Source of the DNA: an uncultured Fibrobacteria bacterium
GTDB lineage: Bacteria; Fibrobacterota; Fibrobacteria; UBA11236
Assembly (NCBI GenBank): GCA_963716395.1
Contig: OY970309.1
Location: 2,281,365 to 2,345,364 of the forward strand
Direction: 5' to 3'
DNA: 64,000 nt
This document shows, in pieces, positions 2,229-42,816 of this stretch. Under the pieces are notes generated by a model, which was given only the letters and a program-made list of their open reading frames with translations, was not told the origin of the DNA and ran no database searches. Each line of letters starts with the position of its first letter. Positions within the stretch are counted from its first letter, which is position 1. Position numbers and translations under genes: made by a program.

Positions 2229-3320
2229 ATGCAGGCTCCGGGAGAAACTCTGGTGGCGGTGGCCATGAGCGGCGGCGTCGATTCTTCGGTGGCGGCCCTG
2301 CTGTTGCAGCGCGCGGGTTACCGCGTGGTAGGGCTGACCATGAAGCTGTGGAGCCCGCCGGCCTGCGACGACACGGGCGACAAAACCTGCTGCACCGTAG
2401 ATTCGGCTTTGGACGCCAAGCGCGTCTGCGATCAACTGGGCGTGCCGCATTACACCCTCGACATGCAGGCCGATTTCGAGGATCGCGTCATCCGGCCGTT
2501 TTACGACGCCTACCGCCGCGGCGAAACCCCGAACCCCTGCGTCAACTGCAACAGCTTCGTGAAATGGGATGCGCTCTGGAAGCGCGCCCAAGCCATCGGC
2601 GCGCAGCACATCGCCACCGGCCATTACGCCGTGCGCGTCGAAGAGGAAGGCTATGCCTACATCGTGCGCGGCGACGATCCCAACAAGGATCAAAGCTATT
2701 TCCTTTGGGGCATTCCGCCGGATTCGCTGCGGCGAACTTTGTTTCCGCTGGGTGCGCTGACCAAGCCGCAGGTGCGCGTTCTGGCCGTCGAAGCCGGGTT
2801 GCGCACCGCACAGAAAAGCGAGAGCCAGGATATCTGTTTCGTGGCCAACGGGAATTACCGCGACTTCATCGCGGCGCGCGCGGCCGAACAAGGCCATGCT
2901 CTGGAACCCGGCCCCCTGGTGGGGCCGGAAGGCGAAATTTTGGGAGAGCACCGCGGGCTGGCGCATTACACCGTCGGCCAACGCAAAGGCTTGGGTGTAG
3001 CCGTGGGCGAACCGCTGTATGTGCGCCGCTTGGAGCCTGCCACCAACACCGTGGTGCTGGGCCGCGCCGCCGATTTGGCGGCCTCTGTCTTTCGCGCCGA
3101 CGGCTTCAACGGCTTCGGCCCGGAATGGACCGGCCGTGAACTGCTGGTGCAATACCGCTACCGCGCGACCGCGCGGCCGGCTTGGGCCGAACGCGGCGCC
3201 GGCGGAAGCGTGCAAGTTACCCTGCGCGAGCCGGGCATCGGCATCAGCCCCGGTCAGAGCGCCGTGTTCTACGACGGACGACGCCTGTTGGGCGGCGCGC
3301 GCATCCGTGAAGTGGGTTAA
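2229..3320 (+). CDS. mnmA: tRNA-specific 2-thiouridylase MnmA
   Basis: PP-loop SGGVDSS near the N-terminus, conserved Cys residues, and full-length similarity to the MnmA/TrmU family. The ORF track starts at TTG 2217; the first ATG is at 2229. Confidence 0.9.
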   Translation: MQAPGETLVAVAMSGGVDSSVAALLLQRAGYRVVGLTMKLWSPPACDDTGDKTCCTVDSALDAKRVCDQLGVPHYTLDMQADFEDRVIRPFYDAYRRGETPNPCVNCNSFVKWDALWKRAQAIGAQHIATGHYAVRVEEEGYAYIVRGDDPNKDQSYFLWGIPPDSLRRTLFPLGALTKPQVRVLAVEAGLRTAQKSESQDICFVANGNYRDFIAARAAEQGHALEPGPLVGPEGEILGEHRGLAHYTVGQRKGLGVAVGEPLYVRRLEPATNTVVLGRAADLAASVFRADGFNGFGPEWTGRELLVQYRYRATARPAWAERGAGGSVQVTLREPGIGISPGQSAVFYDGRRLLGGARIREVG

Positions 3321-9748: not shown

Positions 9749-12700
9749 TCACTTCAACAGGATCATTTTTTTGGTGGCGACGAATTTTCCCGCGATGAAG
9801 CGGTAGAAATAAGGCCCCGAAGCCGCCAATTGGCCCCGGTTGGTGGTGGCGTCCCAGGTGAGGGAGTAACGTCCGGGTTTCAGGGGATTGTCGGGCCGGA
9901 TCAAGGTTTTCACCACCCGGCCGCTGAAATCGTAGATGATGAGGCTGACGGGAGTCTCGTCTTTGAGCGCGAAGCGGATGAAGGTGACGGGATTGAACGG
10001 GTTGGGAAAATTGCCGTACAGCGCGGTTTGCAGGTTGTCGGCCGGTGCGGCTTTGACCGGGCCGTAGAACGCGGCATTGCCCTGAAAGTCGACGGCTTCG
10101 AGCAGGTATTCGTAATACGAAGGACCGTATTGGGAAAGCGGGTCGAGATAGGCGTAAGCGCGTGTGGCGCTGGAGCGGCCGTCGGGCGCGCCGGGCAGAA
10201 GGTCGGTATTGAGGCGGACGTATCCCAGGGATTTGAGCGAGTCCTCGGTAAACGACAATTCCATGGGGATGGGCAGCGAATCGCAGAGGGCGCCGGTCAA
10301 GGTATCGGGCCGGGGCAGCGTGCGGCGCCAAACGTTGTAGCCCAGGTTATCATATTCGCTTTGCGTGACCCAATTGAGGCCGCTGTGGCCGCCCGTATCG
10401 GCCGCGGTGTAAAGCAGATTCATCGTGACCGCCAAACCGTTGGCGTGGCTGATGTAAATATCCTGAATTCCTCCGGAAAAGGTGTGGTTGAATTGCAGGA
10501 CTACGTCGCTGTTGGTGTTATCGAGAGTGGCGTTGTACTGATATCCCGGCACCTGGGTTTGGTTGTTGACGATGACGTAATTGGGAATGCCGCCAAACGT
10601 CCAGCCGGTGATTTTGAACGCGGGCTTCACGCGCGGCGTGGTGGCGTCGAAACGGAAATGCGCGATGCCGCTGGAGGCGGCCTGGTACACGAAGGCGCCT
10701 TCGCCTTCGGCGAATCCGTCGCCGTTGAAATCCAGGGCGTCGCCCGTGACCAGTGAACCCGTGATGGCCGTCATGAGCTGGCTCGACACCTGCGGGCTCG
10801 ACAGGGCGGAGTCGAGGCTGGCCGAATCGGAATAATTGCGCGCGATGTCGACCATGTAATTGGTGTACACGCCGCCGGCCGATACGTTGGTTTTGGTGTA
10901 ATACCCGTTGAGCAGCAGCGCCGTTTTCGCGGTCGAATTGTCGGTGCTCGACACCGTGCTGCCGTTCATCACCACGCTGCCGCTGCCCGGTTTCACCGAC
11001 AGCATGGAAAGGCCCAGGCTGTGGAAATACAGATTCGTATTGCCGCCGAGACGGCCGGCTTTGCCCGTCGCGGCCGTATATCCCAAAACGGATTCGTTGG
11101 AGTCTTCGTTGGCCAAGCCTGTGAGCACCACCTCGGTGCCGGTGGCGTCGGCCGAGAGCGAGGTCCACTTGTGCGAAATGAAGAGTTTGCCGGTGGGGTA
11201 GATGGTGAAGGTCCGTTCCAGGGTGAGATTGGGCGATGCCACGTTCAGGGAGGCGGCATTGATCTTGACCTTGAGCCGCGTCGACGAAGAGTCGAGAATG
11301 GTATAGGTGAGGGGATTGGGCGAACTGTAGTCGTTGCCCGAGGTGTATTTGGTCGTGCTGTTATTGTCATAGCGCATGAGGTCGAGGGTGTACTGGCCCG
11401 GCCCCGTCAAGTCGGTGGCCTGGGACAGGGCCAGGTAGGGGCTGATTTCGGAACTCTTCCACGAGAAGATGCCGCCGTCGCCGTCATTGGTCGTGGTCGA
11501 CCCGTTGAGGTCGATGATGAGTTCCCATTGGTTACTGCCCGCGGCGCCGAAGACCGTATCCGGGAAGTTACGCACTTTGAGCCAATGATCGGCGGCGTCG
11601 TAGGTGGTGACCAAGGCGGGCATGAGCGACGAGGCTCCCAGGTAGCCGGTGGAGTCGTCGTCGTCGATGAACAGGTTGGCCTGGGAGGTGGTGATGGTCT
11701 TGTTGAGCTGCAAGACCAGCTTCGATCCGAAACTCGACACCGCCTGCAAAATGGTGTCGGATACGAAGTCGACCAAAGGCCGCAGGCGCGTGCCGTTGAG
11801 GTAGACGTAATTGGGCGTGCGGCCCGCGAACCAGTTGTCGATATAGAACATCGGTTGCACATGCACCTGCGGGGCGCTGTCGTTGAGGACGAGATCGACG
11901 CGGTTGTTGTTGTCGGCGCGCACGCGGTTGAGTCCATCGAGCGGGTCGAAGCCGCGGCGGTACAGCGACTGGATTTCCTCGGGCGAAAGTTCGCGCTTGT
12001 AAATGCGGATGTCGTCGAGCACGCCTTTAAAGCGGTCGACCGATCCGCTGCCGGCGTTTTCGCCGAAATGCAGATTGCTGCTGTTGGCCACGGGCGCGGC
12101 GATGGAGGTGCCGGCCGCCACGCGTATGCCGTTTACGTATCCGTAAATCTGGCCGCCGCTGGTGACCGTGAAGATGACGTAGTTCCAGGCGTTGTTGTTC
12201 AGCGCCACGGTGACCGAACCCGACCCCATGTTGAAGGTGACCTGATTTTGTCCCGACACCTTGCGCACGAAATAGCCGTTCGCGGTCGAAGTGCCCTTGT
12301 CGATGAAGTACGCCGTATTGCCCATGTTGGTGAAATCGGGATCGACCCAGAAGCACAAAGACCAGTCTTGATACCCGTCGAGGGAGTCGGCATTGCCGTT
12401 GACCGACACCACGTCGGTGGTGGCCAGGCTCAGCCCGCCGGCCCATTTGCCGGTGGTCCAGGTGCCGCCAGTCAAGGCGCCGTTGTGTTGAAAGTACACC
12501 GCCTTGTCGCGCACGGTGGTGCCCGAAGCGTCGTCCAGGGGCCAATGCCCGTACAGGGCGTCTTGCCAGGAGCGCTCGCCCCAATTTGCGCCCGTATACA
12601 CATGCAGCGGCAATGCGGCCGTGGCTTCGGTGTACAGCGACGCGGTCTTGGCATAAGTGGGCGTCTTGTCGCCGAGGTACAGCAAAAAAGATTGGGTGCG

Positions 12701-15700
12701 GATTTGATGCGGCGCGAGGGAAGCCATGGCCGTGGTTTGCCATTTGACGAAACCGCCCGATCCCGCAGCCGTGGATTGCGCCCAGGATTCGGCGGCCGCA
12801 GCGCCGGTGTCGAGCGGCAAGGTCGCCAGCACGGCCAAGCCCCGCGTCGCGGTGGTGAGATATCCGAAGCCGTTATCGCTGCCGCCGTTGCCGTAAGCTG
12901 CCGTGGCGTTGTTTACCGTGGTGGTATAGGCCACCGTATCCATCGCCACGGTGCCGGCATAGAGGTTGCGCAATTGCGACTCGACGTAGATGTGGCCCGA
13001 AGGCAGAATGGTGTAATAGACGTCGAGGTCCATACTGGCCGTCACCGCCAGCCGCTGCCACACATACGCGTAAGCCCGGTTTTTGGCCAGGAGTATAGGG
13101 GTGATGGTGTTGGAGGTTTGTGCCGAGGCCTTGTAGCTGCCGATTTGCACGTCGAAGAGCAGCGAATTTGCGGCCAGCAAATTGGTGGTGGTGTCGCCGC
13201 CGTCGTACAAGGCGTCGATGCCGCCGCCACGCGCCTTGTCGAATACGATTTTCCAGTCGGCGTTGCGCACCGTGACCGTGCTCGCGGTGGTCGACGTGAT
13301 GAGGGTGTCGAAGTTGCCGCTGGTGGTATTGCCGTATCCCGTGCCTTCGTAAACCCCGATGTCGGGCGCCGCGCCCGTCGGGCGCGCATCGCCGTACAGA
13401 TCGTGCGAGGTGGTGACGCTGTACCCGCCGCTGACCAGACTCGCGGTGCCGGCGTCGATGGCCGGCGACGTCGGCAGCAGTTTGCCGAAGTTGTAATCGC
13501 CCAAAGTGGTGGAAGCCAGCAGGGGATCTTTGATGATTTTGTTGGCATCGGTTTCGCCCGCCACTTCGTCGCCCGTGGTCACCTGCCAGAACAGATTGTT
13601 GGAGACGAGCCCGATGTCGCTGGAATACACGTTGCGGATTCCGTAATTGAAGTTGTAGAAGATGTTATTGGTGACGGTGCTGCTGGTATAAGTCGCGTTG
13701 CCGTCATAATGAAAACCTTCGGTGGCGCCGCCCGATCCGAAGAACAGGTTGTTGACGAAGTTCTGGTTGCGGCCGTTGTAGACGCTGATTCCGTAGCTTG
13801 TGGGTTGGTAGCACAAATTGTTGGCGACCAGAATGTTCTGATTGGTGGAGCTGGGAATGTGGATGCAGGTTTGGTGTTTGGTGCTCCCATTGTTGAATAT
13901 CCGGCAACCATCGACGGTGATGCCCGTGCCGTTATAGCGGATATAAATTCCGTCATAACCGTTGGTGCCCGCCTTGATGTCCAGGTTGCGCAACACAATG
14001 TTCGAGTTGGCGGCTACGGTGTAGTAATAGGTGCTGGAATTCTCGCTCACGCTGCCCGAGCCGTTAAGAGTGGGGCGGGTTTGCCCGTCGAAAGCCTGGA
14101 TGATGGTGGGCTTGGCGTTGATGGTGAAGGAATTGTCGGTGTAGGTGCCCGGCAGTACGCGTACCACCACGGTATCGTTGGCCGTGCAATTGCTCACGGC
14201 GCTGCTGATGGTGAGTTTGGGCGTGGCGGGATTCGCGGCCGTGGCGCAGGAGTTGGCGTCGGAACCGATGGCCGAGTCGACATACACGGTGTCGGCGCCG
14301 TACAGGTTCTGGAAAATGTTGGCGGTGTCGGAGGACGAAGAGTTGATGGGCGACCATTTGCCGGCCGTGTTGTGGATGGCCAGCCCGAAGTAATAGGTGT
14401 TGGGATAGGTGGCCGGAACCAAATATGTGGTGTCGGTGGTGGAAATCGCCTTGCGCGTCACCAAGGTTCCCACGCCCGCGCTGTCGGGGAAATAGGTGTT
14501 GCTGTACGCCGTCGAGGTCGCTTGGTATTTGACCCAGATGCCGATCGAGTCGGCGTTGGTCGAGTCGGTGATGCTCGCACCCCAACTGCATTGAATGCCC
14601 CCAACGGCGGCATTGCAGGTCAGCACGGCGTTGTTGTCGGGGCCGGGTCGGCTGTTCCAGAACACGTTACCCGTGGCGCGCTGGGTTTGATAGCTCAATT
14701 TGATCCAGTTAGAGTCGCGCACGGTGTTGGCGATGGCGACTTCGTCGAACTTCCCCTGGTAATACGCGTCGGCGCTCCAATTTGAATGACCCAAGAAATT
14801 GCTCGTGCGGGTGATCACATTGGGTGGCAAGGCTGAAGTTCCGCTTTGGATCAAGGAACCGTTCTTGTACATCTTGATAGCAGTTCCATTGAAGGTGACC
14901 GCGAAATGGGCCCAAACTCCCGTGGCGAGCGCGCTGGTCGCGTTGACAGCTATCCCGTCGCTCGAGCCATTGTAGACGTCCGCGCTCCAAGTAGTGCCGG
15001 TGCTATTGCGCCCCGACCAAAGGTTATCCGAATGCGTTCCATTGCCGAAGTCAAATAGCCGCGCGTAAGATCCGGTACTCGCCCAATAGGCCCAGCCGGT
15101 GTAAGTGAAGCCGTTGGACCAATCCGCAAACCCGGAGGGAGCGCTGAGGTATTTACTCACACCGTCCAAGCTATCGCAACCGGCGATGATGCCGCCGGTA
15201 TATTCGCTGCCGGTGTAATTGTTGGTGGTCAAACTCAGGCTGTTGGCCGTGGCATCAGGGCGCGACCCGGTGCCGCTGGTATTCAAATGCCAATCGGCTA
15301 CGTACCCATTCGCGGTGGAGAACACGCAGGTGCCGCATTGGCCGTCAGGCACGGTGACGCCCGAGGCCTGTTGGTAATACAAGGTGATGAAATCATGATC
15401 GCTGTTGCCGTCGATCTGGGGAACGAGTACCCATACTTCGGCGCTGTCGGGCGATGTGCTCCATCTTTCGATTTGGTAGTTCAGCCAAGTTTTGCCATCG
15501 CCGTCGAGAAAGCGAATATCCGGGGCGTTGGTCTGCACCGCCGCGGTGATGCCGCCTCCGGTGATGCGCACCAGCAAAGGGAAATTGGTCACGTTGCTGA
15601 GGACATTGGCGCCGGTTTTGGTGGTGTTGAAAATGAATTTCTTGGTGTGCTGAAAATCCGATGGGCTGGGGTTGAACAAGGGCGTGGCGTCGGTGCGCTG

Positions 15701-18700
15701 ATTCTGGTAGGCGAGTTTGATCCAGTTGGAATCGCGCACCACGTTGGACACTTCGATCTCGTCGATAACCCCGTCCCAATACCGGGAGTCGGTCGCGTCG
15801 CCGACGCGTCCGACCTGCATCACCGTGGGCGTTTTCGAGGTAAAAGCCACGCCGGATATGGTGGATGAAGCCACCATGGCCCCGTTGACGTACAGCTTGG
15901 CGGAACCGGTTCGGTCCCAGGTGGCCGCGACATGGGCCCAAGCCCCCGCCGTAGCCGTCCCTCCCGTCAAGTTTCCGGTAACGCCGTCGGTCCCATCCTG
16001 GTAACTCAGATTATAGCCCGTGCCATTGATGCCGAGATTACATTCGAGTGCATCGGTACCGTTGATACCGAGCCCGTTATAGGTTGTCGCCGTAGTCCCA
16101 TTCGATTCGTACATGGTCACCATCGTGCGAACCTGATCGGGCTTCACCCAATGCGAAATGGTGCCGGTAGTCTTGGGCCATTGCAAGGTGTGGGTGAAGT
16201 TGTCCGCTTGCGTTGCGCTTGCGTCTCCGGCAGTGCCCCCCTGGAAATCGAGGCCGCGACCAATGACTCCCGCTACGGTATGGTTGCTGGTGTTGTCGTT
16301 CGTAGTGTTGTTCTTGTAGGTGCCGTTCTGCGCAGCGACCACTTCGGAAACGGTGGCGCTTGCGGCCGTATCGTTCATATGCCACACGCCCGTGAACCCA
16401 TTCGCGGTACTGAACACGCAGGTGGCGCATTGGCCGTCAGGCGCGGTGACGCCAGACGCCTGCTGGTAATACATAGTGATGTAACTGCTGGTGCTGTTGC
16501 CCGCGATTTTGGGAACGAGCACCCAAATCTCGGCCGAATCCGTCGCCGTGGTTTTCCAGCGTTCGATTTGATAGGGCAGCCAGGTCACGCCGTCGCTGGC
16601 GAGAAAGCGAATGTCTTGCCCGGCGCTTTGGCAGGCGCCGATGATGGTCGAACCGGTGAGGCGGATCAACACAGGAAAGTTGTACACGTCGCCCGCCACA
16701 TTGGCGCCCGTCGAGGTGGTGTTGAACTTGAAAATTTTGGAATGCTGAAATGAAGCCGTGGTGACGGCTGTGGTCATGAAGGTACTGTTCGGTTTTTGGT
16801 TTTGGTAAGAGAGTTTGATGTAATTCGAGTCGAGGGCAGCGGTGGTATTGCTGAGTCGGACTTCGGAGATTTCGCCGTTGAATTGCCGGCCCGTCTGTCC
16901 CAGGTTTTCGCCGATGTAGAGATCGGCGCTATTCGTATCCACATTGCCGGTGACCGAGATTGCAGAACCGTCTTTGGATCCATCGACAAACAGTCTGACA
17001 TTCGACCCGTCATAGGTGCCGACGACATAATGCCAATTGCCGTCGGCTACGTTCACGGCGGAAGAAGAGGTACCGTACGCGATTCCACCGATGGAGATCG
17101 CGAAATAAGCCGCGTTGGAAGTGTTGTTTCGTTGCAGCCGGTAAGCATTATCGGCTTTGGTGACGATGGCCTGCCAGGTTTTGGTCCAGGCCGGTATCTT
17201 GACCCAGGTCGAAACGGCGATATTGGTGGTGAAGTTGTAATTGCTTTCCTTGGGGATGTCGATGTAATCGGTGCTGCCGTCGAATACGAGAGCCGTTTGC
17301 GTGGTGAGCCCCGCAATATTGGCCATGTTCTTGAAATAGGTGCCGTTATTGGCCAAGGCCGTGGCGTCATAGGCCTTGTCCTTGGTTCCCTCCAGATGAT
17401 AGACCGACTTGTAATTCTTCCACAGCGAATCGGGCCGCTCCTGCGGGTTGCCCGAGCAGGCGGCGCAGCCGTAATACAATTTGATGTAATCGGTCGATGA
17501 ATTGCCGTCGACTTGCGGTACCTTGACCCAGACTTTTCCGTTCTGGTTGGCTTTGTCCCATTGCACGACTTCGTGGTACAGGCGCGTACCGTCGGGGTCG
17601 ACGAAGAGAATATCTTTGGCGTCGTCGCGCACCTTGGTGAAATCGAAGTTGGAACTGGAAAGCGTCACCAGAATGGGAATGTTGGTGACATTGGCGGAAA
17701 CGTTGGCGCCGCTGGAAGTCGTATTGAAATTCAGAATAACCGAATTGGTGTAGTCGCCGCTGGCATAGCCCACGGTCACGGCTGTTGCTCCTCGCACCTG
17801 GGTTTGGTAACAGAGCTTGACCCAATCCGCGGAGCGCACCGTGGTGCTGATGCTGATTTCGTCGAGGCCGCCGTTCCAATAATTGCTGCTTAGGAATTCG
17901 CCGATGTTCAGATTTCCCGTGCCCTTGTAAACGGCGCCGGCGGTGCGGCTGTTGTTATAAACTCCGTTATAATAAAGCGTTTGCAGCTTGGAGGAACTGT
18001 TAAATGTTGCGGTCCAGTATTGCCAAACTCCCGTATTGGTGTTGGTTGCCGAAGAGTTTAAATCGTCGTTCCATAAACCCAATGTGAAATAGTCGGTATT
18101 GCGATAACCGAATTGCAGCCCGCTGTCGTTGACGCCGCCCCCTTGGCCGATGAGGAAGTTGAGGGATCCCGTGGCCGCACGGTTGACCCAACCGCTGAGG
18201 GTGAAGCTGCCGTTGGCGATATTCACATTGGCTGTGGCCGAAGGCGCGGTCAAATATTGCGTCGAGCCGTTGAAGGTTTGGCCTTGGGCGATGTCTGACC
18301 CGACCTGGGTTCCGCTGGTCATGGCCGTGCCCGTGGCCGGGCTGCGACCCACGGCATCGGCATAACCAGCGGTAGTGGTGTTGCCGACCTCGTTCAAATG
18401 CCAGTCGGCGATGAACCCGTTGTTGCTGTTGAATACCGCCTGCCCGCTGCTTAAACTCGTGGCGGTGTTTTTGCCCCAATACATGTTGAAATATTGGCTG
18501 TTGTTGTTCGCATAGACCGTATCCACCAGCACCCAGATTTCCGCCGAGTCGGCGGTATTGCTCCAGCGTTCAATCTGGTACGGCATCAAGGTTCCGTCGG
18601 CTTTGGCGAAGCGAAGGTCGCCGCCGTTGGCCTGGGCCTGCGCAAAATTGAAGTTCGAGGCGTTCAGCCGCACCAGTAGGGGAAAGCCGGTGACATTGGT

Positions 18701-19246
18701 GGTGGTATTGGCGCCCGTCGCCGTGGTGTTCACATACACCTTGGTCGTGTAGGACCAGGTCGATAACGCGGTGTTGGGGTACGAAACCGCGACTTCGCCG
18801 CTGGGCTTCTGGGTTTGATAATCGAGCTTGATTTGATCTGCACTGAGCGCGCTGTGAATGAAGCGCACTTCATCCAAAACGCCGTTGAAGAAGTAACTGG
18901 TCGGCAAAGGCGACCAGAAGGTGAGCGCATCGTATCCCGCCCGCCAGTAACCGCTGAAGTTCTGAGCCGTGGTCGTGGTGGGATCGCTGGCGACTTGCGC
19001 GCCGTCCACGAACAGCATTTCGCCGGAGCCGGAAAGCTGTGCCACCACAAAATGCCAGGCGCCATCGTTGTAGGCGGATGTGGAACTGATGATTTTATTG
19101 CCTACTCGGAGCGACGCCGAAGTTGAGCTTGCCGGTATTGTCCATCCAAACCATGCGGTCGTAATTGGCGCTGGCCCCGGTTTTCGCATCTCCGAAACCC
19201 AAAATTTTTCCGCCGGAGGTAGGTGCTGGTTTTGAACCAGGCTCAA
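9749..19246 (-). CDS. Giant secreted surface/adhesin-like protein, distal part (3165 aa). Domains: DUF2341 modules, LamG/concanavalin-like lectin domains, a parallel beta-helix (pectate-lyase-fold) region and a C-terminal T9SS-type sorting domain.
   Basis: DUF2341 modules repeat the pattern N(F/I)P(L/V)L(V/I)R(L/I)...D(I/L)RF...DG...YQIERW...AEIWVLVP...GNS...YYQ. LamG-like modules carry ...NWHYVVGTYDGSNVRLFVDGS...LDEVR(L/F)S. The beta-helix repeats include NNLFFGSGG, NNIFYNF and SNNLFWQ. The C-terminus FPNPFNPVT...IYDFSGRVVKTL...GPYFYRFIAGKFVATKKMILLK matches the Por_Secre_tail consensus. The annotated start is TTG, and the protein begins mid-LamG domain (see findings). Confidence 0.8.
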   Translation of the reverse strand: MSLVQNQHLPPAEKFWVSEMRKPGPAPITTAWFGWTIPASSTSASLRVGNKIISSTSAYNDGAWHFVVAQLSGSGEMLFVDGAQVASDPTTTTAQNFSGYWRAGYDALTFWSPLPTSYFFNGVLDEVRFIHSALSADQIKLDYQTQKPSGEVAVSYPNTALSTWSYTTKVYVNTTATGANTTTNVTGFPLLVRLNASNFNFAQAQANGGDLRFAKADGTLMPYQIERWSNTADSAEIWVLVDTVYANNNSQYFNMYWGKNTATSLSSGQAVFNSNNGFIADWHLNEVGNTTTAGYADAVGRSPATGTAMTSGTQVGSDIAQGQTFNGSTQYLTAPSATANVNIANGSFTLSGWVNRAATGSLNFLIGQGGGVNDSGLQFGYRNTDYFTLGLWNDDLNSSATNTNTGVWQYWTATFNSSSKLQTLYYNGVYNNSRTAGAVYKGTGNLNIGEFLSSNYWNGGLDEISISTTVRSADWVKLCYQTQVRGATAVTVGYASGDYTNSVILNFNTTSSGANVSANVTNIPILVTLSSSNFDFTKVRDDAKDILFVDPDGTRLYHEVVQWDKANQNGKVWVKVPQVDGNSSTDYIKLYYGCAACSGNPQERPDSLWKNYKSVYHLEGTKDKAYDATALANNGTYFKNMANIAGLTTQTALVFDGSTDYIDIPKESNYNFTTNIAVSTWVKIPAWTKTWQAIVTKADNAYRLQRNNTSNAAYFAISIGGIAYGTSSSAVNVADGNWHYVVGTYDGSNVRLFVDGSKDGSAISVTGNVDTNSADLYIGENLGQTGRQFNGEISEVRLSNTTAALDSNYIKLSYQNQKPNSTFMTTAVTTASFQHSKIFKFNTTSTGANVAGDVYNFPVLIRLTGSTIIGACQSAGQDIRFLASDGVTWLPYQIERWKTTATDSAEIWVLVPKIAGNSTSSYITMYYQQASGVTAPDGQCATCVFSTANGFTGVWHMNDTAASATVSEVVAAQNGTYKNNTTNDNTSNHTVAGVIGRGLDFQGGTAGDASATQADNFTHTLQWPKTTGTISHWVKPDQVRTMVTMYESNGTTATTYNGLGINGTDALECNLGINGTGYNLSYQDGTDGVTGNLTGGTATAGAWAHVAATWDRTGSAKLYVNGAMVASSTISGVAFTSKTPTVMQVGRVGDATDSRYWDGVIDEIEVSNVVRDSNWIKLAYQNQRTDATPLFNPSPSDFQHTKKFIFNTTKTGANVLSNVTNFPLLVRITGGGITAAVQTNAPDIRFLDGDGKTWLNYQIERWSTSPDSAEVWVLVPQIDGNSDHDFITLYYQQASGVTVPDGQCGTCVFSTANGYVADWHLNTSGTGSRPDATANSLSLTTNNYTGSEYTGGIIAGCDSLDGVSKYLSAPSGFADWSNGFTYTGWAYWASTGSYARLFDFGNGTHSDNLWSGRNSTGTTWSADVYNGSSDGIAVNATSALATGVWAHFAVTFNGTAIKMYKNGSLIQSGTSALPPNVITRTSNFLGHSNWSADAYYQGKFDEVAIANTVRDSNWIKLSYQTQRATGNVFWNSRPGPDNNAVLTCNAAVGGIQCSWGASITDSTNADSIGIWVKYQATSTAYSNTYFPDSAGVGTLVTRKAISTTDTTYLVPATYPNTYYFGLAIHNTAGKWSPINSSSSDTANIFQNLYGADTVYVDSAIGSDANSCATAANPATPKLTISSAVSNCTANDTVVVRVLPGTYTDNSFTINAKPTIIQAFDGQTRPTLNGSGSVSENSSTYYYTVAANSNIVLRNLDIKAGTNGYDGIYIRYNGTGITVDGCRIFNNGSTKHQTCIHIPSSTNQNILVANNLCYQPTSYGISVYNGRNQNFVNNLFFGSGGATEGFHYDGNATYTSSTVTNNIFYNFNYGIRNVYSSDIGLVSNNLFWQVTTGDEVAGETDANKIIKDPLLASTTLGDYNFGKLLPTSPAIDAGTASLVSGGYSVTTSHDLYGDARPTGAAPDIGVYEGTGYGNTTSGNFDTLITSTTASTVTVRNADWKIVFDKARGGGIDALYDGGDTTTNLLAANSLLFDVQIGSYKASAQTSNTITPILLAKNRAYAYVWQRLAVTASMDLDVYYTILPSGHIYVESQLRNLYAGTVAMDTVAYTTTVNNATAAYGNGGSDNGFGYLTTATRGLAVLATLPLDTGAAAAESWAQSTAAGSGGFVKWQTTAMASLAPHQIRTQSFLLYLGDKTPTYAKTASLYTEATAALPLHVYTGANWGERSWQDALYGHWPLDDASGTTVRDKAVYFQHNGALTGGTWTTGKWAGGLSLATTDVVSVNGNADSLDGYQDWSLCFWVDPDFTNMGNTAYFIDKGTSTANGYFVRKVSGQNQVTFNMGSGSVTVALNNNAWNYVIFTVTSGGQIYGYVNGIRVAAGTSIAAPVANSSNLHFGENAGSGSVDRFKGVLDDIRIYKRELSPEEIQSLYRRGFDPLDGLNRVRADNNNRVDLVLNDSAPQVHVQPMFYIDNWFAGRTPNYVYLNGTRLRPLVDFVSDTILQAVSSFGSKLVLQLNKTITTSQANLFIDDDDSTGYLGASSLMPALVTTYDAADHWLKVRNFPDTVFGAAGSNQWELIIDLNGSTTTNDGDGGIFSWKSSEISPYLALSQATDLTGPGQYTLDLMRYDNNSTTKYTSGNDYSSPNPLTYTILDSSSTRLKVKINAASLNVASPNLTLERTFTIYPTGKLFISHKWTSLSADATGTEVVLTGLANEDSNESVLGYTAATGKAGRLGGNTNLYFHSLGLSMLSVKPGSGSVVMNGSTVSSTDNSTAKTALLLNGYYTKTNVSAGGVYTNYMVDIARNYSDSASLDSALSSPQVSSQLMTAITGSLVTGDALDFNGDGFAEGEGAFVYQAASSGIAHFRFDATTPRVKPAFKITGWTFGGIPNYVIVNNQTQVPGYQYNATLDNTNSDVVLQFNHTFSGGIQDIYISHANGLAVTMNLLYTAADTGGHSGLNWVTQSEYDNLGYNVWRRTLPRPDTLTGALCDSLPIPMELSFTEDSLKSLGYVRLNTDLLPGAPDGRSSATRAYAYLDPLSQYGPSYYEYLLEAVDFQGNAAFYGPVKAAPADNLQTALYGNFPNPFNPVTFIRFALKDETPVSLIIYDFSGRVVKTLIRPDNPLKPGRYSLTWDATTNRGQLAASGPYFYRFIAGKFVATKKMILLK

Positions 19247-22200
19247 ATGGTGAAGGTATTGGGGTTGGAAAACTGAGTGGTGGTGGAGACGTATTTCGAA
19301 CTGCCGTCGAGTTTGTACCCATAGCTGATATCGGCGCTGACACTGTCGCCGGTGACGCCGCCCTGGGCCGTGCCGTTATTGCCGTTGCCCGAGGCGTCGG
19401 TGAATTGCGGCGCGGTGCCGCCGGGGCTTTGCTGCAAGTGGTACACGCCGACATAGGAACCGAACACGCTCGCGTCGCTGCTTTGGCTGGACGCGCTCGG
19501 CCGGCCCCAATACATCTTGATGTAATCCGTATTGGAGTTGGCGTCGACCTGCGGCACCTTCACCCACAGCCAGGCTTTTTTATTCGTGTAATCCCATTTC
19601 TCAATCGAATAGGAAAGTACGGTGCCGTCGGGATCGGTGAAGCGAATGTCGGATCCGTCGGTTTTGGCTTGCGAGAAAATGAAGTTGTTCGAGTCGAGTC
19701 GCACCAGCATGGGATAGTTGGTGATGTTGGTTGAGGTGTTGGCGCCGGTCGAGGTGGTGTTGAAATTGATGGCGGTCGAATAGGCCCAGGCCGAATAATC
19801 GAAAGTCCAATTCGTGTTAGCGCCGCCGTTGGTGCTGTTATCCGCCGCGCCTGTGGAACCTCCCCCGGCATTGCTGCCCGCGATGTTGGCGTAGTTGGCG
19901 CTCAAGGCTCCGGCTACGGTCAGCGTCCAGGCCGTGGCGTTCATGTCCAAGAGATTTCCGCTTTGACCCGTGAAGCTGGCGTTGCCGGCTACCGTAAGGG
20001 TTCTGCCGTTCAAGTTGGAAAAGCTGGTGGTCGCGCCGTTGGTCACCGTGAAGTTGCCGGAACTGGTCGTGCTGATGTTCTGCCCGTTGAAATTCAAAAT
20101 ACCCGCGCTTTGCGTGAACGAAAGGCAGGTCAGCGCGTTGGTGGAAAGTTGCAGGGTGCCGGCTCCGGTGTGGGAAATATTGGGATGCGTGGCGCCCGAG
20201 TTGGGGGTGAAAGTTTGTGTCCCCGAGCCCGCAGTGAAGGCCAAGGTTCCTGTTCCCACCGTTAAGGTGCCCAGGTTGGAGAGGTCGGCGTTCCCCGAAG
20301 TAACCTGCACGGTACTGGAACCGAAATCCATGGTTCCGGCGGCGGTAGAAATGGATGTGACGGAATGCGTGAATCCGCTACCCCATTGCCAGGTGCCCGA
20401 GGTCAAGGTAAAGGCGCCGGCGGTTAGCGCGTTGGTGGCCACGGCCACGGTTCCCGAAGACCCGGATTTGGTGATGGCGGGAAAGGTGGCCCCGGATTTG
20501 GGCGTGAAGGTTTGCGTGCCGGAATTGCCGGTGAAGGCGAGCGTGCCCGTACCGGCCGTCACGGTTTGACCGGAAACAAAAGTGGCGTTGCCCGTATTGA
20601 TGGTCAAGGTGTAAGACCCGAAATTAAACGTGCCGGTGTACCCGGTAAAATCAATGGAAGCCGCGGCTTGGCTGGCCGACATCGTGGCGTTGGCATTGGC
20701 ATTGGAGCCGCTGCCGTTGAAGGAAAGGTTGAGACCCGTGGAGGAAATGGCCGTGCCGCCCTGGAACTCGTCGAACACAGCCACGCCCGTGAGTCCGGAA
20801 TTGTGGGAGCAGAGCAACAGGCCGATTTGAGAATTGGCATTGGTGCTCACCACGGTTTGCGTCGTGTTTTGCTGGGTCCAGGTGCTGGCCAACGAGGTTC
20901 GGTAGTAGGCGCTCACCGAAGATCCGCTTTTGACCAGACGCAGCCAGACCGGGAGGGTCACCGCCGAGCCGCTGATGCCGATGGACGCCAATTGGCCCGC
21001 CGTGGTGGTGCTCGCCTCGAATTCGAGTTTCAAATCGCCGCGCACGGCGATCCCCGCATAGCCGCCCGAATTATTCGCCGTCCCCGGTCCCAGGACCGTG
21101 AAGTCATTCGCCATGTAGATGCCCGCCTTGGCGGCGGTGTTTGTGTTGTAAACCGAATCGACCCGTACCGTCACATCGAAATCGCCCGTGATATCCGCGC
21201 GGCGCAAGGCCGTGAATTCGTTCGTGGTCTGCCAAAGTTCCGAGCCGCGCCCCTGGATAGTCAGACGCCCGTACTTCGTGGTTTGGTCGCACGTGCCCGT
21301 GCCCGCATTGTTGTCCGCGTCCTGGCAGGTCCATGAGCCGCCGAGGGTGGTGGACGAGAAATCGTCGTCGGTGGTGGAGGCGGGTCGGCGGCCCGTACCG
21401 TCAGCGTTACCCGTCCAGTTATACGCCTTACTGAAATCGGTACTGGAAGTCAGCACATCGTTGCGATTCCAATAATAGGTGTTGCCTTGGGTGGAACCAT
21501 ATAAGACGGGAGTGGCTCCCGCCACTTGGGTTTGATAATTGAGTTTGGCCCAGTCGGCGCTTCGAGAAGAGGAGGAAATTTGCACTTCATCGAGGGAACC
21601 GTTGAATATTTCGGTTGTGTTGGCCGCGCTTGGGATGCCGAAACGCAGGTAGGTGGTGTTATTGTTCACCGTCTGGGTCACGCTGGTATTGGCAGTTCCC
21701 GCCGAAGTCCCGTTAATGTATAGGGTCTGAGTCCCTCCGGAATAGGTTCCCATGATGTATACCCAGGTACCGGCCGAATATGCGCCGCTCTTTTGCCAAT
21801 CCTTTGCGTTGCTCTCGCTACCCACGCGATACCACATCGAACCATCCGAACGTGCTTTGAATGTCCAACCAACGCCGCTGGCATCGTTGGGATTTTTGTC
21901 GACGATTTCCTGGTTCGCCAAGCTCGTCGCCTTCATCCAGAACGAAACGGTTTGCGAACTGGCCGAACCCGGCCAAGGTCCGAAGCCCAGGTAACTGGCT
22001 GAGCCGTCGAAGGCGGTGCCGTTTCCGATCACTCCAGCCACCTGCCCTGCTCCTGCATTCGTCATACCCCCCGCCGCCGAATCATTGTAAATACCGGTTG
22101 CGTCTCGGTAATTGCCGACGGAATTGCTGCCGGTCTCGCCTAAATGCCAAACCCCAATGAAACTGTTTGAAGTCGAAAACACCGAAGAAGCGCTGGAGGC

Positions 22201-22680
22201 ATCGCTTTGTCCGCTTTTGCCCCAGTAAATACGGATGTCCGTGGTTGAGTTTCCCGCAACGCTGGGCACCAGCACCCAAATATCCGCCGAGGTGGAGTTG
22301 GTCCAATCCTCGATTTGATAAGACAAGGCCGTGGACCCGTCGGAACTGGAAAAGCGCACGTCGGCGCCGCCGGAAAGCGCCCCGCTCAAAATGTCGCTGG
22401 CGAAGAAGTTGGTGAGGCGGATTAACACCGGATAATTCGTCTGGGTAGTCGAAACGTTGGCGCCGCCGCCGGTGTTGGTCGTATTAACGGTGAGCGTCTT
22501 GTATTTTGCCCAAGTGTCATAGGGACCGGCTTGGGCGATGGCGGCGATCCACAACACACTCGCGCCAAGCCAAATCCAGGAGCGGCTGGGTAGTCGCAAT
22601 GTCTTCACGCCTCGAAGATGGCTTCGAGCCCGGGGGAAAAGTTCTTCCCAGCCCTTGGCGATATTATTCCTCAAATGCAT
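19243..22680 (-). CDS. Giant surface protein, proximal part (1145 aa). It has an N-terminal signal region, two DUF2341 modules, LamG-like domains and a Thr/Ser/Gly-rich beta-strand repeat region, and ends inside a LamG domain.
   Basis: Hydrophobic N-terminal segment (WIWLGASVLWIAAIAQA). DUF2341 modules are at NYPVLIRL...DVRF...YQIEDW...IWVLVP and NYPMLVRL...DIRF...YSIEKW. The C-terminus ...YKLDGSSKYVSTTTQFSNPNTFTI stops where a LamG domain has just begun. The stop TGA 19245..19243 overlaps the TTG start of the next ORF. Confidence 0.8.
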   Translation of the reverse strand: MHLRNNIAKGWEELFPRARSHLRGVKTLRLPSRSWIWLGASVLWIAAIAQAGPYDTWAKYKTLTVNTTNTGGGANVSTTQTNYPVLIRLTNFFASDILSGALSGGADVRFSSSDGSTALSYQIEDWTNSTSADIWVLVPSVAGNSTTDIRIYWGKSGQSDASSASSVFSTSNSFIGVWHLGETGSNSVGNYRDATGIYNDSAAGGMTNAGAGQVAGVIGNGTAFDGSASYLGFGPWPGSASSQTVSFWMKATSLANQEIVDKNPNDASGVGWTFKARSDGSMWYRVGSESNAKDWQKSGAYSAGTWVYIMGTYSGGTQTLYINGTSAGTANTSVTQTVNNNTTYLRFGIPSAANTTEIFNGSLDEVQISSSSRSADWAKLNYQTQVAGATPVLYGSTQGNTYYWNRNDVLTSSTDFSKAYNWTGNADGTGRRPASTTDDDFSSTTLGGSWTCQDADNNAGTGTCDQTTKYGRLTIQGRGSELWQTTNEFTALRRADITGDFDVTVRVDSVYNTNTAAKAGIYMANDFTVLGPGTANNSGGYAGIAVRGDLKLEFEASTTTAGQLASIGISGSAVTLPVWLRLVKSGSSVSAYYRTSLASTWTQQNTTQTVVSTNANSQIGLLLCSHNSGLTGVAVFDEFQGGTAISSTGLNLSFNGSGSNANANATMSASQAAASIDFTGYTGTFNFGSYTLTINTGNATFVSGQTVTAGTGTLAFTGNSGTQTFTPKSGATFPAITKSGSSGTVAVATNALTAGAFTLTSGTWQWGSGFTHSVTSISTAAGTMDFGSSTVQVTSGNADLSNLGTLTVGTGTLAFTAGSGTQTFTPNSGATHPNISHTGAGTLQLSTNALTCLSFTQSAGILNFNGQNISTTSSGNFTVTNGATTSFSNLNGRTLTVAGNASFTGQSGNLLDMNATAWTLTVAGALSANYANIAGSNAGGGSTGAADNSTNGGANTNWTFDYSAWAYSTAINFNTTSTGANTSTNITNYPMLVRLDSNNFIFSQAKTDGSDIRFTDPDGTVLSYSIEKWDYTNKKAWLWVKVPQVDANSNTDYIKMYWGRPSASSQSSDASVFGSYVGVYHLQQSPGGTAPQFTDASGNGNNGTAQGGVTGDSVSADISYGYKLDGSSKYVSTTTQFSNPNTFTI

Positions 22681-28310: not shown

Positions 28311-29534
28311 ATGCGAAAAATCATCAAACTCATCGTCGGGTCGATGCTGACGGCGGCAGGCGGGAGCGTCTGCGCGCAACCGCAATGGGCCTTGGACACC
28401 ACCTTGTCCACCGGGCAATTATCGCAGGGCATCGCCATCACACCCGACAATACCAAAATCATCGTCACCGACAACGTCACGCCCAGCGCGATCCAGATTA
28501 TCTCCACGGCCGACTATTCGATGGTCACGGTGACCTACACTGCCGACGGTTTTCCCAATGCCGTGGCGGTGACGCCCGACGGGTCCGCTGCCCTGGTCAA
28601 CACCACGCATCAGACGCTTTATATCAATCTGGCGACGGATTCCGTCAGCGATTTTTTCGCGGCGCCCTGCGTCGCAACCACCCTGTACGGCCTCGCGGTG
28701 TACGGCGCATCCGCCGTTTATCCCGACCTCAGTTCGGGCTGCACCGAACAGGGGTTGCGGTTCATCAATGCGGAACTGCCTAATTCCGCTTCGACCTTCG
28801 TGCCGATCGCCACCAAGGGGGAATTGACCGGAATCGGAATCCTGGGGAATACGGCGTTGGTGACGGCCTGGAACGCGGCGCCCGTGCTGGTCAATCTCGC
28901 CACCTCCGACACGCAAACCATCGGCGGCATGACCGAGTCCTACGGCGTGGCCATGTTGCATCACAGCAATGAGGCCCTGGTCTTTGACGGCGACTCGGTG
29001 GATCGGGTTTCGCTCGCCACCGGGTCCATTTCCAAAAAAATAGCGCCCCTGTCTTCCAACACCGGATTCCAAAACCTCGCCATCACCAAGGACGACAAGT
29101 ACGCTTTCGCGATCGGCTCTTTTGAAGAACGGATCATCGCTCTGGCCAATGACTCGGTGCTCCAAACTTTTCCCATCGGGGGCGTCAGCGTCGCCGCCGA
29201 TTCGGATGGCTCGGCGTTTTACGTTACCGACAGCTATGGCGGGCAGGTGCGGGTTTATAAAGCTGTCGGTAACTCTTCCCTCAGCGGCCTGAAAAAAATT
29301 CCATCGGGGATTTTCGTTTTCCCCAGCGTCACGTCCGGAATCATTACGATCCGGGGATCGGGGGAAAACGCCGCGGTGAATATTTACAACATGCTGGGCG
29401 TCACGATTTACCATGCGGATTTTCTGGCGCTGCGGCAGGAGTCGGTGGATTTATCCGCCCGGCCGAAAGGAATCTACGCCGTCAAAGTCAGAGCCGGCAA
29501 TCAGGTCGGAATGCAAAAAATCCTGATTCAATAA
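28311..29534 (+). CDS. Secreted beta-propeller repeat protein (YVTN/YncE-like) with a T9SS-type C-terminal sorting domain
   Basis: ATG at 28311 with a GAGGGGGGA Shine-Dalgarno. Signal peptide MRKIIKLIVGSMLTAAGGSVCA. Repeated ...ITPDN.K..VTD... propeller blades. C-terminal ...VNIYNMLGVTIYHADF...KGIYAVKVRAGNQVGMQKILIQ. The ORF-track start at 28065 is upstream junk. Confidence 0.65.
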   Translation: MRKIIKLIVGSMLTAAGGSVCAQPQWALDTTLSTGQLSQGIAITPDNTKIIVTDNVTPSAIQIISTADYSMVTVTYTADGFPNAVAVTPDGSAALVNTTHQTLYINLATDSVSDFFAAPCVATTLYGLAVYGASAVYPDLSSGCTEQGLRFINAELPNSASTFVPIATKGELTGIGILGNTALVTAWNAAPVLVNLATSDTQTIGGMTESYGVAMLHHSNEALVFDGDSVDRVSLATGSISKKIAPLSSNTGFQNLAITKDDKYAFAIGSFEERIIALANDSVLQTFPIGGVSVAADSDGSAFYVTDSYGGQVRVYKAVGNSSLSGLKKIPSGIFVFPSVTSGIITIRGSGENAAVNIYNMLGVTIYHADFLALRQESVDLSARPKGIYAVKVRAGNQVGMQKILIQ

Positions 29535-29659
29535 AACCGGCAGGATTTTTTCCTGGCGGCGGAAGGGCTTGGTCCCATTCCGCCTTGGCCTTGCAAGCGG
29601 CATCGGCAAAACGCCGCGCCAGCATTTCTATTTGTGAATCAAATGGTATCTTGGCTGCC

Positions 29660-30346
29660 GTGAAAATCCTCCTCCTTGAGGATGAGGCCGAACTCGCCCA
29701 ATCCATTTCCACCTTCCTGAAAAAGGGCGGCCACATCGTCGAGGTCGCGTCTTCCCTGGTGGCCGCCCGGCAAGCCTTGGCCAATGTCCAGGATTGCGTG
29801 CTCGTGGACATTTTGCTCCCCGATGGAAACGGCCTGGATCTCCTCCGGGAACTCAAGTCGGGGAACCCGGAAATCGGGATTATCATCATTTCGGCCAAGG
29901 ATTCCGTGGGCGATAAGATTCATGGCCTGGAATTGGGAGCGGACGACTACCTGGCCAAACCCTTCCATCTCGGCGAACTCCATGCGCGTATCAAGTCGCT
30001 CGCCCGGAGAAAGCAGCGCCAAGGCTCGACCGTTCTCGAATGCGGAGGCATTCGGTTGCATCCGGACTCGATGGAAGCGCTCATCCGCGGCCAGACCCTG
30101 GCGCTGACTCCCAAGGAGTTCGAATTGCTCCTGTATTTTATGACCAACCGCAATCGCGTCCTGTCCAAGCAATCTTTGCTAGAGCACCTCTGGGAAAACA
30201 TGGCGCTCGGCGCCGATTCGCATGATTTCATCTATGCCCACATCAAAAACCTGCGCCGGAAAATTTTCCAATCCGGAGGCGAGGATCCCATCAAGACGGT
30301 GTATGGTCTGGGCTACCGCTTCGTCGCCGAGCCGCCCGACTCGTGA
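29660..30346 (+). CDS. OmpR-family response regulator (CusR/CzcR/CopR-like)
   Basis: GTG start giving MKILLLEDE..., receiver Asp (LVDILLPD) and a winged-helix C-terminus ...VYGLGYRFV. It overlaps the downstream kinase gene (GTGA). Confidence 0.9.
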   Translation: MKILLLEDEAELAQSISTFLKKGGHIVEVASSLVAARQALANVQDCVLVDILLPDGNGLDLLRELKSGNPEIGIIIISAKDSVGDKIHGLELGADDYLAKPFHLGELHARIKSLARRKQRQGSTVLECGGIRLHPDSMEALIRGQTLALTPKEFELLLYFMTNRNRVLSKQSLLEHLWENMALGADSHDFIYAHIKNLRRKIFQSGGEDPIKTVYGLGYRFVAEPPDS

Positions 30347-31621
30347 AGCTACTCACCAAAACCACCCTCGTCACCGCCGTTACATCTCTGTTACTGGCCC
30401 TTCCGGCGGGCTGGGTGGGATACCGCTTGGTGCAGGCGGAGGTCGGCAAGGAGGTGGACGGACAACTCCTTTCCCTGGCGGCCTCCCTGCAAGGGCAACT
30501 CGCCGGCCTGATTGCGGTTTCACCCATCGGGGCCCGCATCCGGGTCGATGCGATTCCCGCGGATAGCCTCCCCTCCGCGGTTTTCCGGGACACCCTGCTG
30601 CCCGATCCCATCGAAGGGGAACCCGTTCCTTTCCGCCTGTACGCTTATTCCGCCTGGGAAAACGGAAAACATTTCCACATCCTCCTGGGACTCCCGCGCT
30701 TGGAATCGGATGATTTGCTGGGAGACATCGCCATTTCCTTGGGAACCATCTTGGCCTTGCTCCTCGCGGGTTTGCTGGGGACCAACCTGGCGGTGTCCCG
30801 CAGCGTATGGAAACCATTCCGGCAAACCCTGGCCGCGCTTGCGACCCATGACTGGTCCAAACCGGACGCTCTCAGCCTTCCATCCACGCGCATACGGGAG
30901 TTCCAAACCCTGAACGCAACCCTTGCGGATATGAGCGAACGCATCCGAAGCCACATCAGTAACCTCCGCGATTTCACGGGAAACGCAGCGCATGAGATGC
31001 AGACACCGTTGGCCGTCGTCCTGGCCAAGCTGGAAAATCTTCCGGACGCGGGCGCTTGGACTCCGGAACAGGCGCGGGAAATACAGGATATGCACGCGGC
31101 CACCGTCCGACTTGGTGCGTTTGAACAAGGCATTGCTGCTGCTGACCCGGCTGGAAGGGGAACATTTCCTCAAGCGGGTTCCGTTCGATCTGGGGGCGGA
31201 AGCGCTTCGCCTCCTCCAGGACTTTTCCGACCTCCTGGAAATGAAACGCATTCACGTTGAGGTTCACCCCGGTCCATCCCTGGTGGCGAACCTAAATCCC
31301 GACCTCGCCGCCATCCTCCTCTCCAACCTCATTCGCAATGCGATTCAGCACAATCTCTCCGGCGGCACCCTCACCTTACGCACGGGTGCGAACGCGCTCA
31401 TCCTGGAGAATACGGGGGAGCCGTTGGGCGTTCCCCCCGAATCCCTGTTTGAACGTTTCCACAAGGGTAATCCCACCTCGGAATCCACCGGCCTCGGCCT
31501 TTCCATCGCACGAAAAATCTGCGACCTGAGCGGCCTCGATCTGGAATACGCATACCGCGAGGGGTTGCACACCCTGACCCTGAGAACGCGACTTCAGAAT
31601 TCCATCAGAATTGGATTGTAG
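30343..31621 (+). CDS. Sensor histidine kinase (CusS/CzcS-like, periplasmic sensing) with an apparent frameshift near 31095..31115
   Basis: In the 30343 frame: two TM helices flanking a periplasmic domain, then the H-box NAAHEMQTPLAVV. From about 31100 the continuation (DLVRLNKALLLLTRLEGE..., N-box LIRNAIQHN, G-boxes ENTGEPLGV and GLGLSIA) is in the +1 frame (ORF 30992..31621). Confidence 0.75.
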
Positions 31622-41194: not shown

Positions 41195-41248
41195 TGTTTG
41201 TTGTTCAAACTGTAGCAGATATTTTAACATAGAAATTGGACACCCAGT

Positions 41249-42679: not shown

Positions 42680-42816
42680 AAAAATCAATTGAACACGTAG
42701 TAATTATTGCAAATTTGAGAAACCATTTCTATCTCAAAACAAATACACTTGGAAAAATTACTTATCCGTGGCTAAAATTGCCTGAACCTCAATAGTTGGG
42801 AATTGGATTTAATAAA

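Follow-up and report, generated by a model that had tools for sequence, protein, structure and literature searches.

Giant T9SS cargo and proteins containing DUF2341

Giant type IX secretion system (T9SS) cargo proteins, such as SprB and RemA of Flavobacterium johnsoniae and cargo equipped with a type-A C-terminal domain (CTD), are the closest described counterparts of the very large protein analyzed here, which is encoded on the minus strand at positions 9749-22680 of a 64,000-nucleotide stretch of DNA (the window; contig OY970309.1, positions 2,281,365 to 2,345,364, assembly GCA_963716395.1) from an uncultured Fibrobacteria bacterium of the lineage UBA11236. These cargo proteins have in common with the window protein a Sec signal peptide and a C-terminal sorting domain (TIGR04183), and they are likewise multi-kilodalton, repetitive and beta-rich proteins with lectin-type domains and presumed surface display. 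In contrast to SprB/RemA-type cargo, the window protein has no SprB repeats, it uses a DUF2341-LamG pair as repeat unit, it carries a C-terminal cassette of its own and its gene is interrupted. We estimate with a probability of roughly 0.6 that the interval has a one-gene origin and specifies a T9SS-exported surface protein of ~4,300 residues, which likely is a multivalent binder of polymeric carbohydrates acting in adhesion or substrate capture and which is interrupted here. A giant T9SS cargo protein is as such of an ordinary and expected kind for the Fibrobacterota. The T9SS is reported to be present in the Fibrobacteres-Chlorobi-Bacteroidetes group (PMC11205867).

Within the same phylum, the protein KMQ52932.1 of Chitinispirillum alkaliphilum (P0074, 'Fibronectin type III domain protein', 3,013 aa) shares the C-terminal cassette, in the order C1-LamG-C2C3-CTD as described below, with ~30% identity over ~590 aa. 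However, it has N-terminal PATR/Ig domains and contains neither DUF2341 modules nor a beta-helix. DUF2341 (PF10102), to which the literature assigns no function (PMC12505986, PMC4858521, PMC11809585), furthermore occurs in MBD3390449.1 of the Chitinivibrionales, in large archaeal proteins linked to type-IV pili, in giant Patescibacteria proteins and in ExbB/TolQ-like proteins with an N-terminal DUF2341. All of these carry the same domain, which was regularly fused to LamG in the matches examined, but they have other partners and secretion routes and are uncharacterised.

On the structural level, the LamG half of the module shares its jelly-roll fold with domain 4 of the glycoside hydrolase (GH) family 43 enzyme AbnA (5HON), the carbohydrate-binding module CBM40, the trans-sialidase lectin domain and the Hc-N domain of clostridial neurotoxin, which it matches in Foldseek at E 1e-9 to 1e-6. 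These domains differ from it by showing only 10-20% sequence identity and by having no DUF2341 partner, and no conserved ligand-binding residues were identified. A weak fold resemblance to the C2C3 model exists for the beta-supersandwich domains of GH38 Ams1, GH94 cellodextrin phosphorylase, GH2 LacZ and the polysaccharide lyases (PL) PL12 heparinase III and PL15 alginate lyase Atu3025; unlike these enzymes, the window protein does not combine C2C3 with a catalytic (alpha/alpha) toroid or TIM barrel.

One ancestral gene split into two open reading frames

As sequenced, the interval is not one gene and encompasses two open reading frames (ORFs) on the minus strand, which overlap by four bases. 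The public annotation of a 3.75-Mb contig lists ORF1 as a separate protein (P0001; 100% identity, 1118 aa) starting with the TTG at residue 28, and in ORF2 the true protein frame is regained only past position 19103. The break between both ORFs falls inside LamG number 2, into which a TGA and two +1 insertions are placed, all within 143 nt. Three-frame translation of the junction revealed that one LamG domain spans all three frames, the ORF1 frame contributing '...NPNTFTI*AWFKTST', the second frame TSGGKILGFGDAKTGASANYDRMVWMDNTGKLNFGVAPS and the ORF2 frame GNKIISSTSAYNDGAWHFVV. Three edits, i.e., reading the TGA at 19243-19245 as serine and removing one base at 19221 and one at 19103, result in an uninterrupted protein of 4,309 aa (the repaired reading), in which LamG 2 matches the Laminin_G_3 profile over its full length (positions 1-151 of 151; 76.7 bits). 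Both ORFs show a GC content at third codon positions (GC3) of coding type (0.73 and 0.77).

A scan of species-representative genomes, a set without the source genome, yielded relatives only in metagenome-assembled genomes (MAGs) of the Fibrobacterota, and in these orthologues the reading is uninterrupted through the lesion site. A contig of 10.5 kb (L004) is open throughout and collinear with residues 961-3985 of the repaired protein at 45% identity in one high-scoring segment pair, L002 aligned to residues 962-2505, and L003 encodes an intact ORF of 3,436 aa that aligned to residues 1293-4309. At the lesion site the repaired reading is, residue by residue, 59% identical to L004 and 57% to L002. 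The repaired FTISAWFKTSTTSGGKILGFG can be aligned to FTHSAWIKTTTTSGGGIVGFG residue by residue through all three frames, and the position of the TGA falls on a conserved serine in the orthologue alignment. Judged from these sequence comparisons, the interval is one ancestral gene. The original prediction of a single gene of ~12.9 kb applies to the reconstruction obtained by repair but not to the DNA as sequenced, which holds two ORFs.

Several other explanations for the interruption were rejected. Recoding or readthrough of the TGA does not account for it because TGA is an ordinary stop codon and even the commonest one in the window, being used by 15 of 29 genes. A programmed frameshift or phase variation was discarded as the lesion sites show neither a homopolymer nor a tandem repeat or a slippery run, and a misassembly via near-identical DNA repeats was discarded as the DNA copies of the modules reach an identity of only 64-83%, in stretches not exceeding 111 nt. 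An ORF of 1,254 aa on the plus strand (11021-14785), which runs antisense to the giant gene, was not accepted as a gene but regarded as a codon-aligned shadow; its GC content at the first codon position amounts to 0.82 and its bounds correspond to sense TCA/TTA/CTA codons. A scan for promoters and terminators gave sites no more numerous than in shuffled-sequence controls.

DUF2341-LamG modules as repeat unit

The body of the protein is dominated by two domain families. DUF2341 is matched six times, twice in ORF1 (105.5 bits) and four times in ORF2 (144.9 bits; cutoff 23.4), and Laminin_G_3 (PF13385) accounts for seven LamG domains, with 67 bits in ORF1 and 327.5 bits in ORF2 (cutoff 27.6). A map of hidden Markov models (HMMs) built here placed a LamG domain directly behind each of the six DUF2341 domains, confirming the six pairs that had been predicted. 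Modules 2-6 (residues 961-2676 of the repaired protein) abut each other with gaps of 0-3 residues, and PKD or Ig families gave no match at E<=0.01 in either ORF or in the repaired protein, so that the proposed PKD/Ig-like, Thr-rich spacers were not recovered.

Whole modules are mutually 28-44% identical. For modules 5 and 6 the identity is 44% across the entire module and 65% within DUF2341, which replaces the value of ~55% given in the original prediction. There is no DNA-level tandem repeat in the gene, the best repeated stretch being 111 nt at 83%. The closest relatives of the modules are found in proteins of other species (module 2 with 59%, module 4 with 57% and module 1 with 50% identity). 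The modules are thus closer to those of other species than to their own paralogues, which argues for old duplications, as had been suggested from the divergence of the repeats. Moreover, 68 full-length DUF2341-LamG units were counted in 44 proteins among the proteins retrieved, showing that the pair is a standing unit.

The structure prediction that had been proposed for one such pair was run on module 6 with AlphaFold2 (34-sequence alignment) and resulted in a compact two-domain body with a predicted local distance difference test (pLDDT) score of 91.5 and a predicted TM-score (pTM) of 0.91. DUF2341 and LamG are therefore predicted to form one rigid unit. With Foldseek against the PDB, the LamG half matched domain 4 of AbnA (5hon_A) with a TM-score of 0.75 normalized to the target, next to the trans-sialidase lectin domain, CBM40, clostridial neurotoxin Hc-N and pentraxin. 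Since the predicted LamG part superposes on carbohydrate-binding lectin-fold domains, a glycan-binding role is plausible. For DUF2341, a profile search against PDB sequences found no solved relative.

At the DUF2341-LamG linker, modules 4-6 contain a CxxC pair (GCAAC, QCATC and QCGTC near 17420, 16410 and 15320). Among the six modules only these three have the pair, and most homologues lack it as well.

Insert, beta-helix and a family-defining C-terminal cassette

The architecture originally described stands in its outline but missed ~1,650 aa, i.e., an insert behind module 1, a fibronectin type III (FN3)-like domain, a choice-of-anchor Q domain and a C-terminal cassette termed C1-LamG7-C2C3. 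The insert of 560 aa (residues ~400-960 of the repaired protein) consists of a concanavalin A (ConA)-like domain followed by beta-strand repeats. Behind module 6, the FN3-like domain precedes a right-handed beta-helix, to which the choice-of-anchor Q domain (ORF2 residues 1919-1967) is directly attached. A pectate-lyase-like beta-helix had been proposed. The generic family Beta_helix (PF13229) is matched, but no lyase or pectinesterase family is (Pectinesterase 15.5 bits versus a cutoff of 27). The same was observed for the beta-helices of the orthologues, which match Beta_helix and NosD only (NosD in two of four, lyase families in none of four). A profile of the beta-helix found nothing at E<=1 among PDB sequences, and the block of FN3-like domain and beta-helix is confined to the closest subgroup of the family.

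The cassette C1-LamG7-C2C3 comprises ~1,100 aa; it follows the beta-helix and precedes the sorting tail. C1 is weakly similar to part of C2C3, and for both a profile search for PDB relatives gave none. A phmmer search with C2C3 against 1.84 billion cluster representatives identified 97 proteins at E<1e-3, among these 33 at E<1e-30, and the matches nearly always end ~115 aa before the C-terminus in proteins of up to 6,700 aa. According to the HMMs built here, the order C1-LamG-C2C3-CTD is found in more than 30 representatives, in which it is preceded by 1-11 DUF2341-LamG units. The window protein likewise has a collinear cassette ending ~115 aa before its C-terminus, with the closest matches being P0062 (50%), L003 (39%) and P0058-61 (38-40%). 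The named sources of the family are MAGs of Fibrobacterota/Fibrobacteria and Chitinispirillum alkaliphilum with KMQ52932.1. The tail cassette is previously undescribed, has no relative in Pfam or the PDB and defines a family. The C2C3 model (26 sequences; pLDDT 79.6, pTM 0.71) is all-beta, and its Foldseek matches are weak but share a common theme, all being beta-supersandwich parts of GH38 alpha-mannosidase, GH94, GH2 beta-galactosidase, PL12 and PL15 enzymes.

An assignment of the region to TafC (NF052521) was rejected, as the match reaches 86.4 bits versus a cutoff of 410 and covers only profile positions 185-362, corresponding to the LamG domain of TafC. TafC is a haloarchaeal Tat-fimbrial subunit with a LamG domain (PMC11821415).

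Export signals

The N-terminus shows a basic n-region, a hydrophobic core of 15 residues and an AQA cleavage motif ending with A51 of the repaired protein. At the opposite end, residues 3080-3162 of the 3165 in ORF2 match TIGR04183 (Por_Secre_tail) with 29.1 bits (cutoff 23), and FlgD_ig reaches 27.9-28.7 bits (cutoff 27) at the same tail. The predicted Por_Secre_tail is thereby retained in its TIGR04183 version, but the Pfam version stays below its cutoff (see below). Signal peptide and sorting domain are present on one polypeptide in the orthologues and would be in the repaired reading; as sequenced, the TGA and the two frameshifts lie between them. As a whole, the domain assignments support the originally predicted very large Sec-exported T9SS type-A cargo protein made of DUF2341-LamG pairs and a beta-helix.

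A second T9SS-tagged protein is encoded at 28314-29534 on the plus strand (Pfam Por_Secre_tail 34.5 bits), the true start of which is probably the internal MRKIIKL beginning a signal peptide. The presence of this second CTD-bearing protein argues for the T9SS being in use.

Proposed function and alternative explanations

From the domain composition, the lesions, the continuity in the orthologues, the distribution of the family and the predicted folds we infer the following secretion route, surface display and carbohydrate binding. The protein would be exported by Sec via its N-terminal signal peptide, would cross the outer membrane by the T9SS recognizing the type-A CTD and would remain displayed on the cell surface. 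Its body would be a chain of six rigid DUF2341-LamG units resembling lectin-fold 'beads', followed by the FN3-like domain, the beta-helix capped by choice-of-anchor Q, and finally C1, LamG and C2C3. In a polysaccharide-degrading bacterium it would most likely bind polymeric carbohydrate, as a long multivalent adhesin or substrate-capture protein. The original prediction of a multivalent polysaccharide-binding or -processing protein is in line with this for binding, which is plausible from the LamG fold, but not for processing, for which no lyase assignment was obtained.

Several findings weigh against such a displayed binder. The full protein cannot be made from the gene as sequenced, because signal peptide and sorting tail are encoded on different ORFs (ORF1 and ORF2, respectively). 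The Pfam profile of the sorting tail (Por_Secre_tail, PF18962) scores 19.6 versus a cutoff of 27, and no T9SS component (GldK/L/M/N, SprA, PorV, PorU) was detected among the ~45 ORFs scanned in the 64-kb window. The invariant positions of the modules are residues of the fold core (W, V, DE, Y), so that the modules could be structural spacers, and no carbohydrate-binding residues, ligand or shared ligand site were identified in the module alignment. The fold similarity found for C2C3 is low, with E values of 3e-5 to 1e-2 and TM-scores of 0.2-0.26, and no gene neighborhood is conserved between the window locus and the loci of the relatives.

The most serious alternative, to which we assign somewhat less than even odds, is that the lesions are real and that the locus is a recently inactivated pseudogene. 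Its product would at best be an N-terminal fragment of 1,145 aa in the periplasm or secreted, without the sorting tail, and the remainder of 3,165 codons would not be exported as it has no signal peptide. The stop codon and both frameshifts are indeed present in the deposited sequence with ORF1 being annotated separately (P0001), no product matching ORF2 was found in a collection of 5.8 billion proteins, genes of this genome ordinarily use TGA as a stop, and one of the lesions is a substitution, which is atypical for consensus errors of the indel type. However, the three lesions are clustered within 143 nt of a 12.9-kb gene, for which we estimate a chance of ~4e-4 if they were independent (3(d/L)^2), and the remaining 12.8 kb are fully open with coding GC3. 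Moreover, a histidine kinase gene 12 kb away is likewise frameshifted, which fits sporadic consensus errors. The clustering and this second frameshifted gene in the window slightly favor a local consensus or assembly error over a true pseudogene. No second strain for comparison of the lesions was found, the best metagenome match showing 49% identity, and look-ups of the exact products gave no match in another strain.

For the function, the surface binder has to be weighed against an enzyme and a filament. The beta-helix, possibly together with C1/C2C3, might represent a polysaccharide lyase or hydrolase with the LamG units as its carbohydrate-binding modules. PL1, PL3, PL9 and GH28 enzymes are folded as right-handed beta-helices, C2C3 resembles supersandwich domains of PL12, PL15, GH38 and GH94 enzymes, and glycoside hydrolase genes adjoin several relatives. 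We nevertheless regard an enzyme as unlikely and as a weaker explanation than the surface binder: only generic Beta_helix and NosD families and no lyase or hydrolase family are matched, the beta-helix has no relative of solved structure by profile search, and the supersandwich domains are accessory parts and not the catalytic center of the enzymes matched. Distant members of the family keep the cassette and have no beta-helix, showing that the latter is not the conserved core. It is even more improbable that the protein is a structural or motility filament, either as a gliding adhesin similar to SprB or as a component of an S-layer or sheath, with the modules as rigid spacers. Giant repetitive T9SS cargo such as SprB serves gliding motility in Bacteroidota, the module surfaces are not conserved, and the sole relative among PDB sequences is an S-layer-associated LamG domain (4qvs); yet SprB-repeat and SLH families were not matched in the domain scans, the sorting domain of SprB is of type B and that of the window protein of type A, and gliding is not known in Fibrobacterota.

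Coordinates of the features of the giant gene

Table 1. Features of the interrupted giant gene in window coordinates; residues refer to the repaired protein.
Feature	Position	Strand	Remarks
ORF1	19243..22680	-	1145 aa from ATG; ends at the in-frame TGA
ORF2	9749..19246	-	3165 codons; open from a mechanical TTG start
Signal peptide	22528..22599	-	MRLPSRSWIWLGASVLWIAAIAQA, cleavage before GP; assigned by inspection with the TTG as start, which is also the start of P0001
Module 1, DUF2341 + LamG	21493..22524	-	residues 53-396; Pfam and HMM map
ConA-like jelly-roll domain	20761..21366	-	residues ~440-640; marginal GH43_C2, 22.5 bits versus 22.7
Gly/Thr/Ser-rich beta-strand repeat region	19801..20760	-	residues 640-960; no family match
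Module 2, DUF2341 + LamG with the three lesions	18779..19800	-	orthologue alignment, Pfam on the repaired reading
In-frame TGA	19243..19245	-	corresponds to Ser in two orthologues and to the Ser of S-x-W in the other LamG modules
Extra base ACC[T]ACC, +1 frameshift	19221	-	exact base inferred from orthologue alignment
Extra base AGT[A]GGC, second +1 frameshift	19103	-	exact base inferred from orthologue alignment
Module 3, DUF2341 + LamG	17765..18769	-	Pfam and HMM map
Module 4, DUF2341 + LamG	16763..17764	-	Pfam and HMM map
Module 5, DUF2341 + LamG	15668..16762	-	Pfam and HMM map
Module 6, DUF2341 + LamG	14651..15667	-	AlphaFold model, HMM map
FN3-like beta domain	14309..14641	-	residues ~2680-2790; conserved in orthologues; no Pfam match
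Right-handed beta-helix	13499..14281	-	residues ~2800-3060; PF13229 26.3-29.6 bits versus cutoff 25.9
Choice-of-anchor Q	13346..13492	-	residues 3063-3111; NF041518 33.1 bits versus cutoff 25
C1, conserved uncharacterised beta domain	12509..13306	-	residues 3125-3390; no Pfam or PDB relative
Seventh LamG	11954..12562	-	residues 3373-3575; Laminin_G_3 80.8 bits; source of the partial TafC match
C2C3, family-defining all-beta region, ~600 aa	10094..11896	-	residues 3595-4195; AlphaFold model, Foldseek
T9SS type-A C-terminal sorting domain	9761..10009	-	residues 4224-4306

Genomic context

Downstream of the giant gene, a cyclic nucleotide monophosphate (cNMP)-binding/DUF4388 protein, a LolA-like protein and a MacB-type ABC transporter are encoded; upstream and divergently oriented are the genes of a radical-SAM protein and a glucose/sorbosone dehydrogenase-like protein. 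Three loci of relatives carry a glycoside hydrolase nearby, namely GH16, GH8 and GH10 (L049 6780-7748 and 26363-32977; L048 12224-14311; L001 546-1775). L049 additionally encodes a second DUF2341-LamG protein of 2,204 aa with a Por_Secre_tail on the opposite strand.

Approximately 45 further ORFs of the window were scanned, ~35 of which have Pfam matches, with domains such as AcrB and H+-pyrophosphatase being matched end to end. The second broken gene of the window encodes the histidine kinase at 30343-31621 on the plus strand, which is split by a frameshift near 31105-31120 into overlapping ORFs in different frames, with HisKA within 30343-31260 and HATPase_c within 30992-31621; it is adjoined by a response regulator (29585-30346). 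This two-component system is followed by a complete resistance-nodulation-division (RND) efflux operon at 31715-37256 on the plus strand, composed of an outer-membrane factor, a HlyD-type adaptor and the AcrB-type pump with its end-to-end Pfam match. A patch of low GC content at ~40000-44000 (0.45 compared to ~0.58) comprises small ORFs of membrane and ankyrin-like type along with a CarboxypepD_reg protein. It is close to a tRNA-Lys(ttt) at 45191-45263 and may be a small acquired island. Finally, the region 51838-62241 encodes NrfD-like, 4Fe-4S and molybdopterin oxidoreductase subunits and several multihaem c-type cytochromes with matches to c7/c3, NrfB-like and MtrC/MtrF-like proteins. This is an anaerobic respiratory module, which is unusual compared to the cultured Fibrobacterota as known.

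Implications for Fibrobacterota

For annotation, the two called ORFs are fragments of one gene and the long antisense ORF is a shadow. DUF2341 gains a structural context, being an integral partner of a lectin-fold domain and not a free-standing module. It is conceivable, albeit doubtful, that C1-LamG-C2C3 is a new, Fibrobacterota-specific module for capture or processing of polysaccharides at the cell surface, with the DUF2341-LamG arrays of variable length as a multivalent stalk extending its reach. If true, this would add a non-CAZy component to the poorly understood attack of Fibrobacterota on insoluble polymers. Fibrobacterota are specialist degraders of insoluble polysaccharides with a surface machinery that is only partly understood, and this family of giant T9SS-tagged proteins provides candidates for substrate adhesion.

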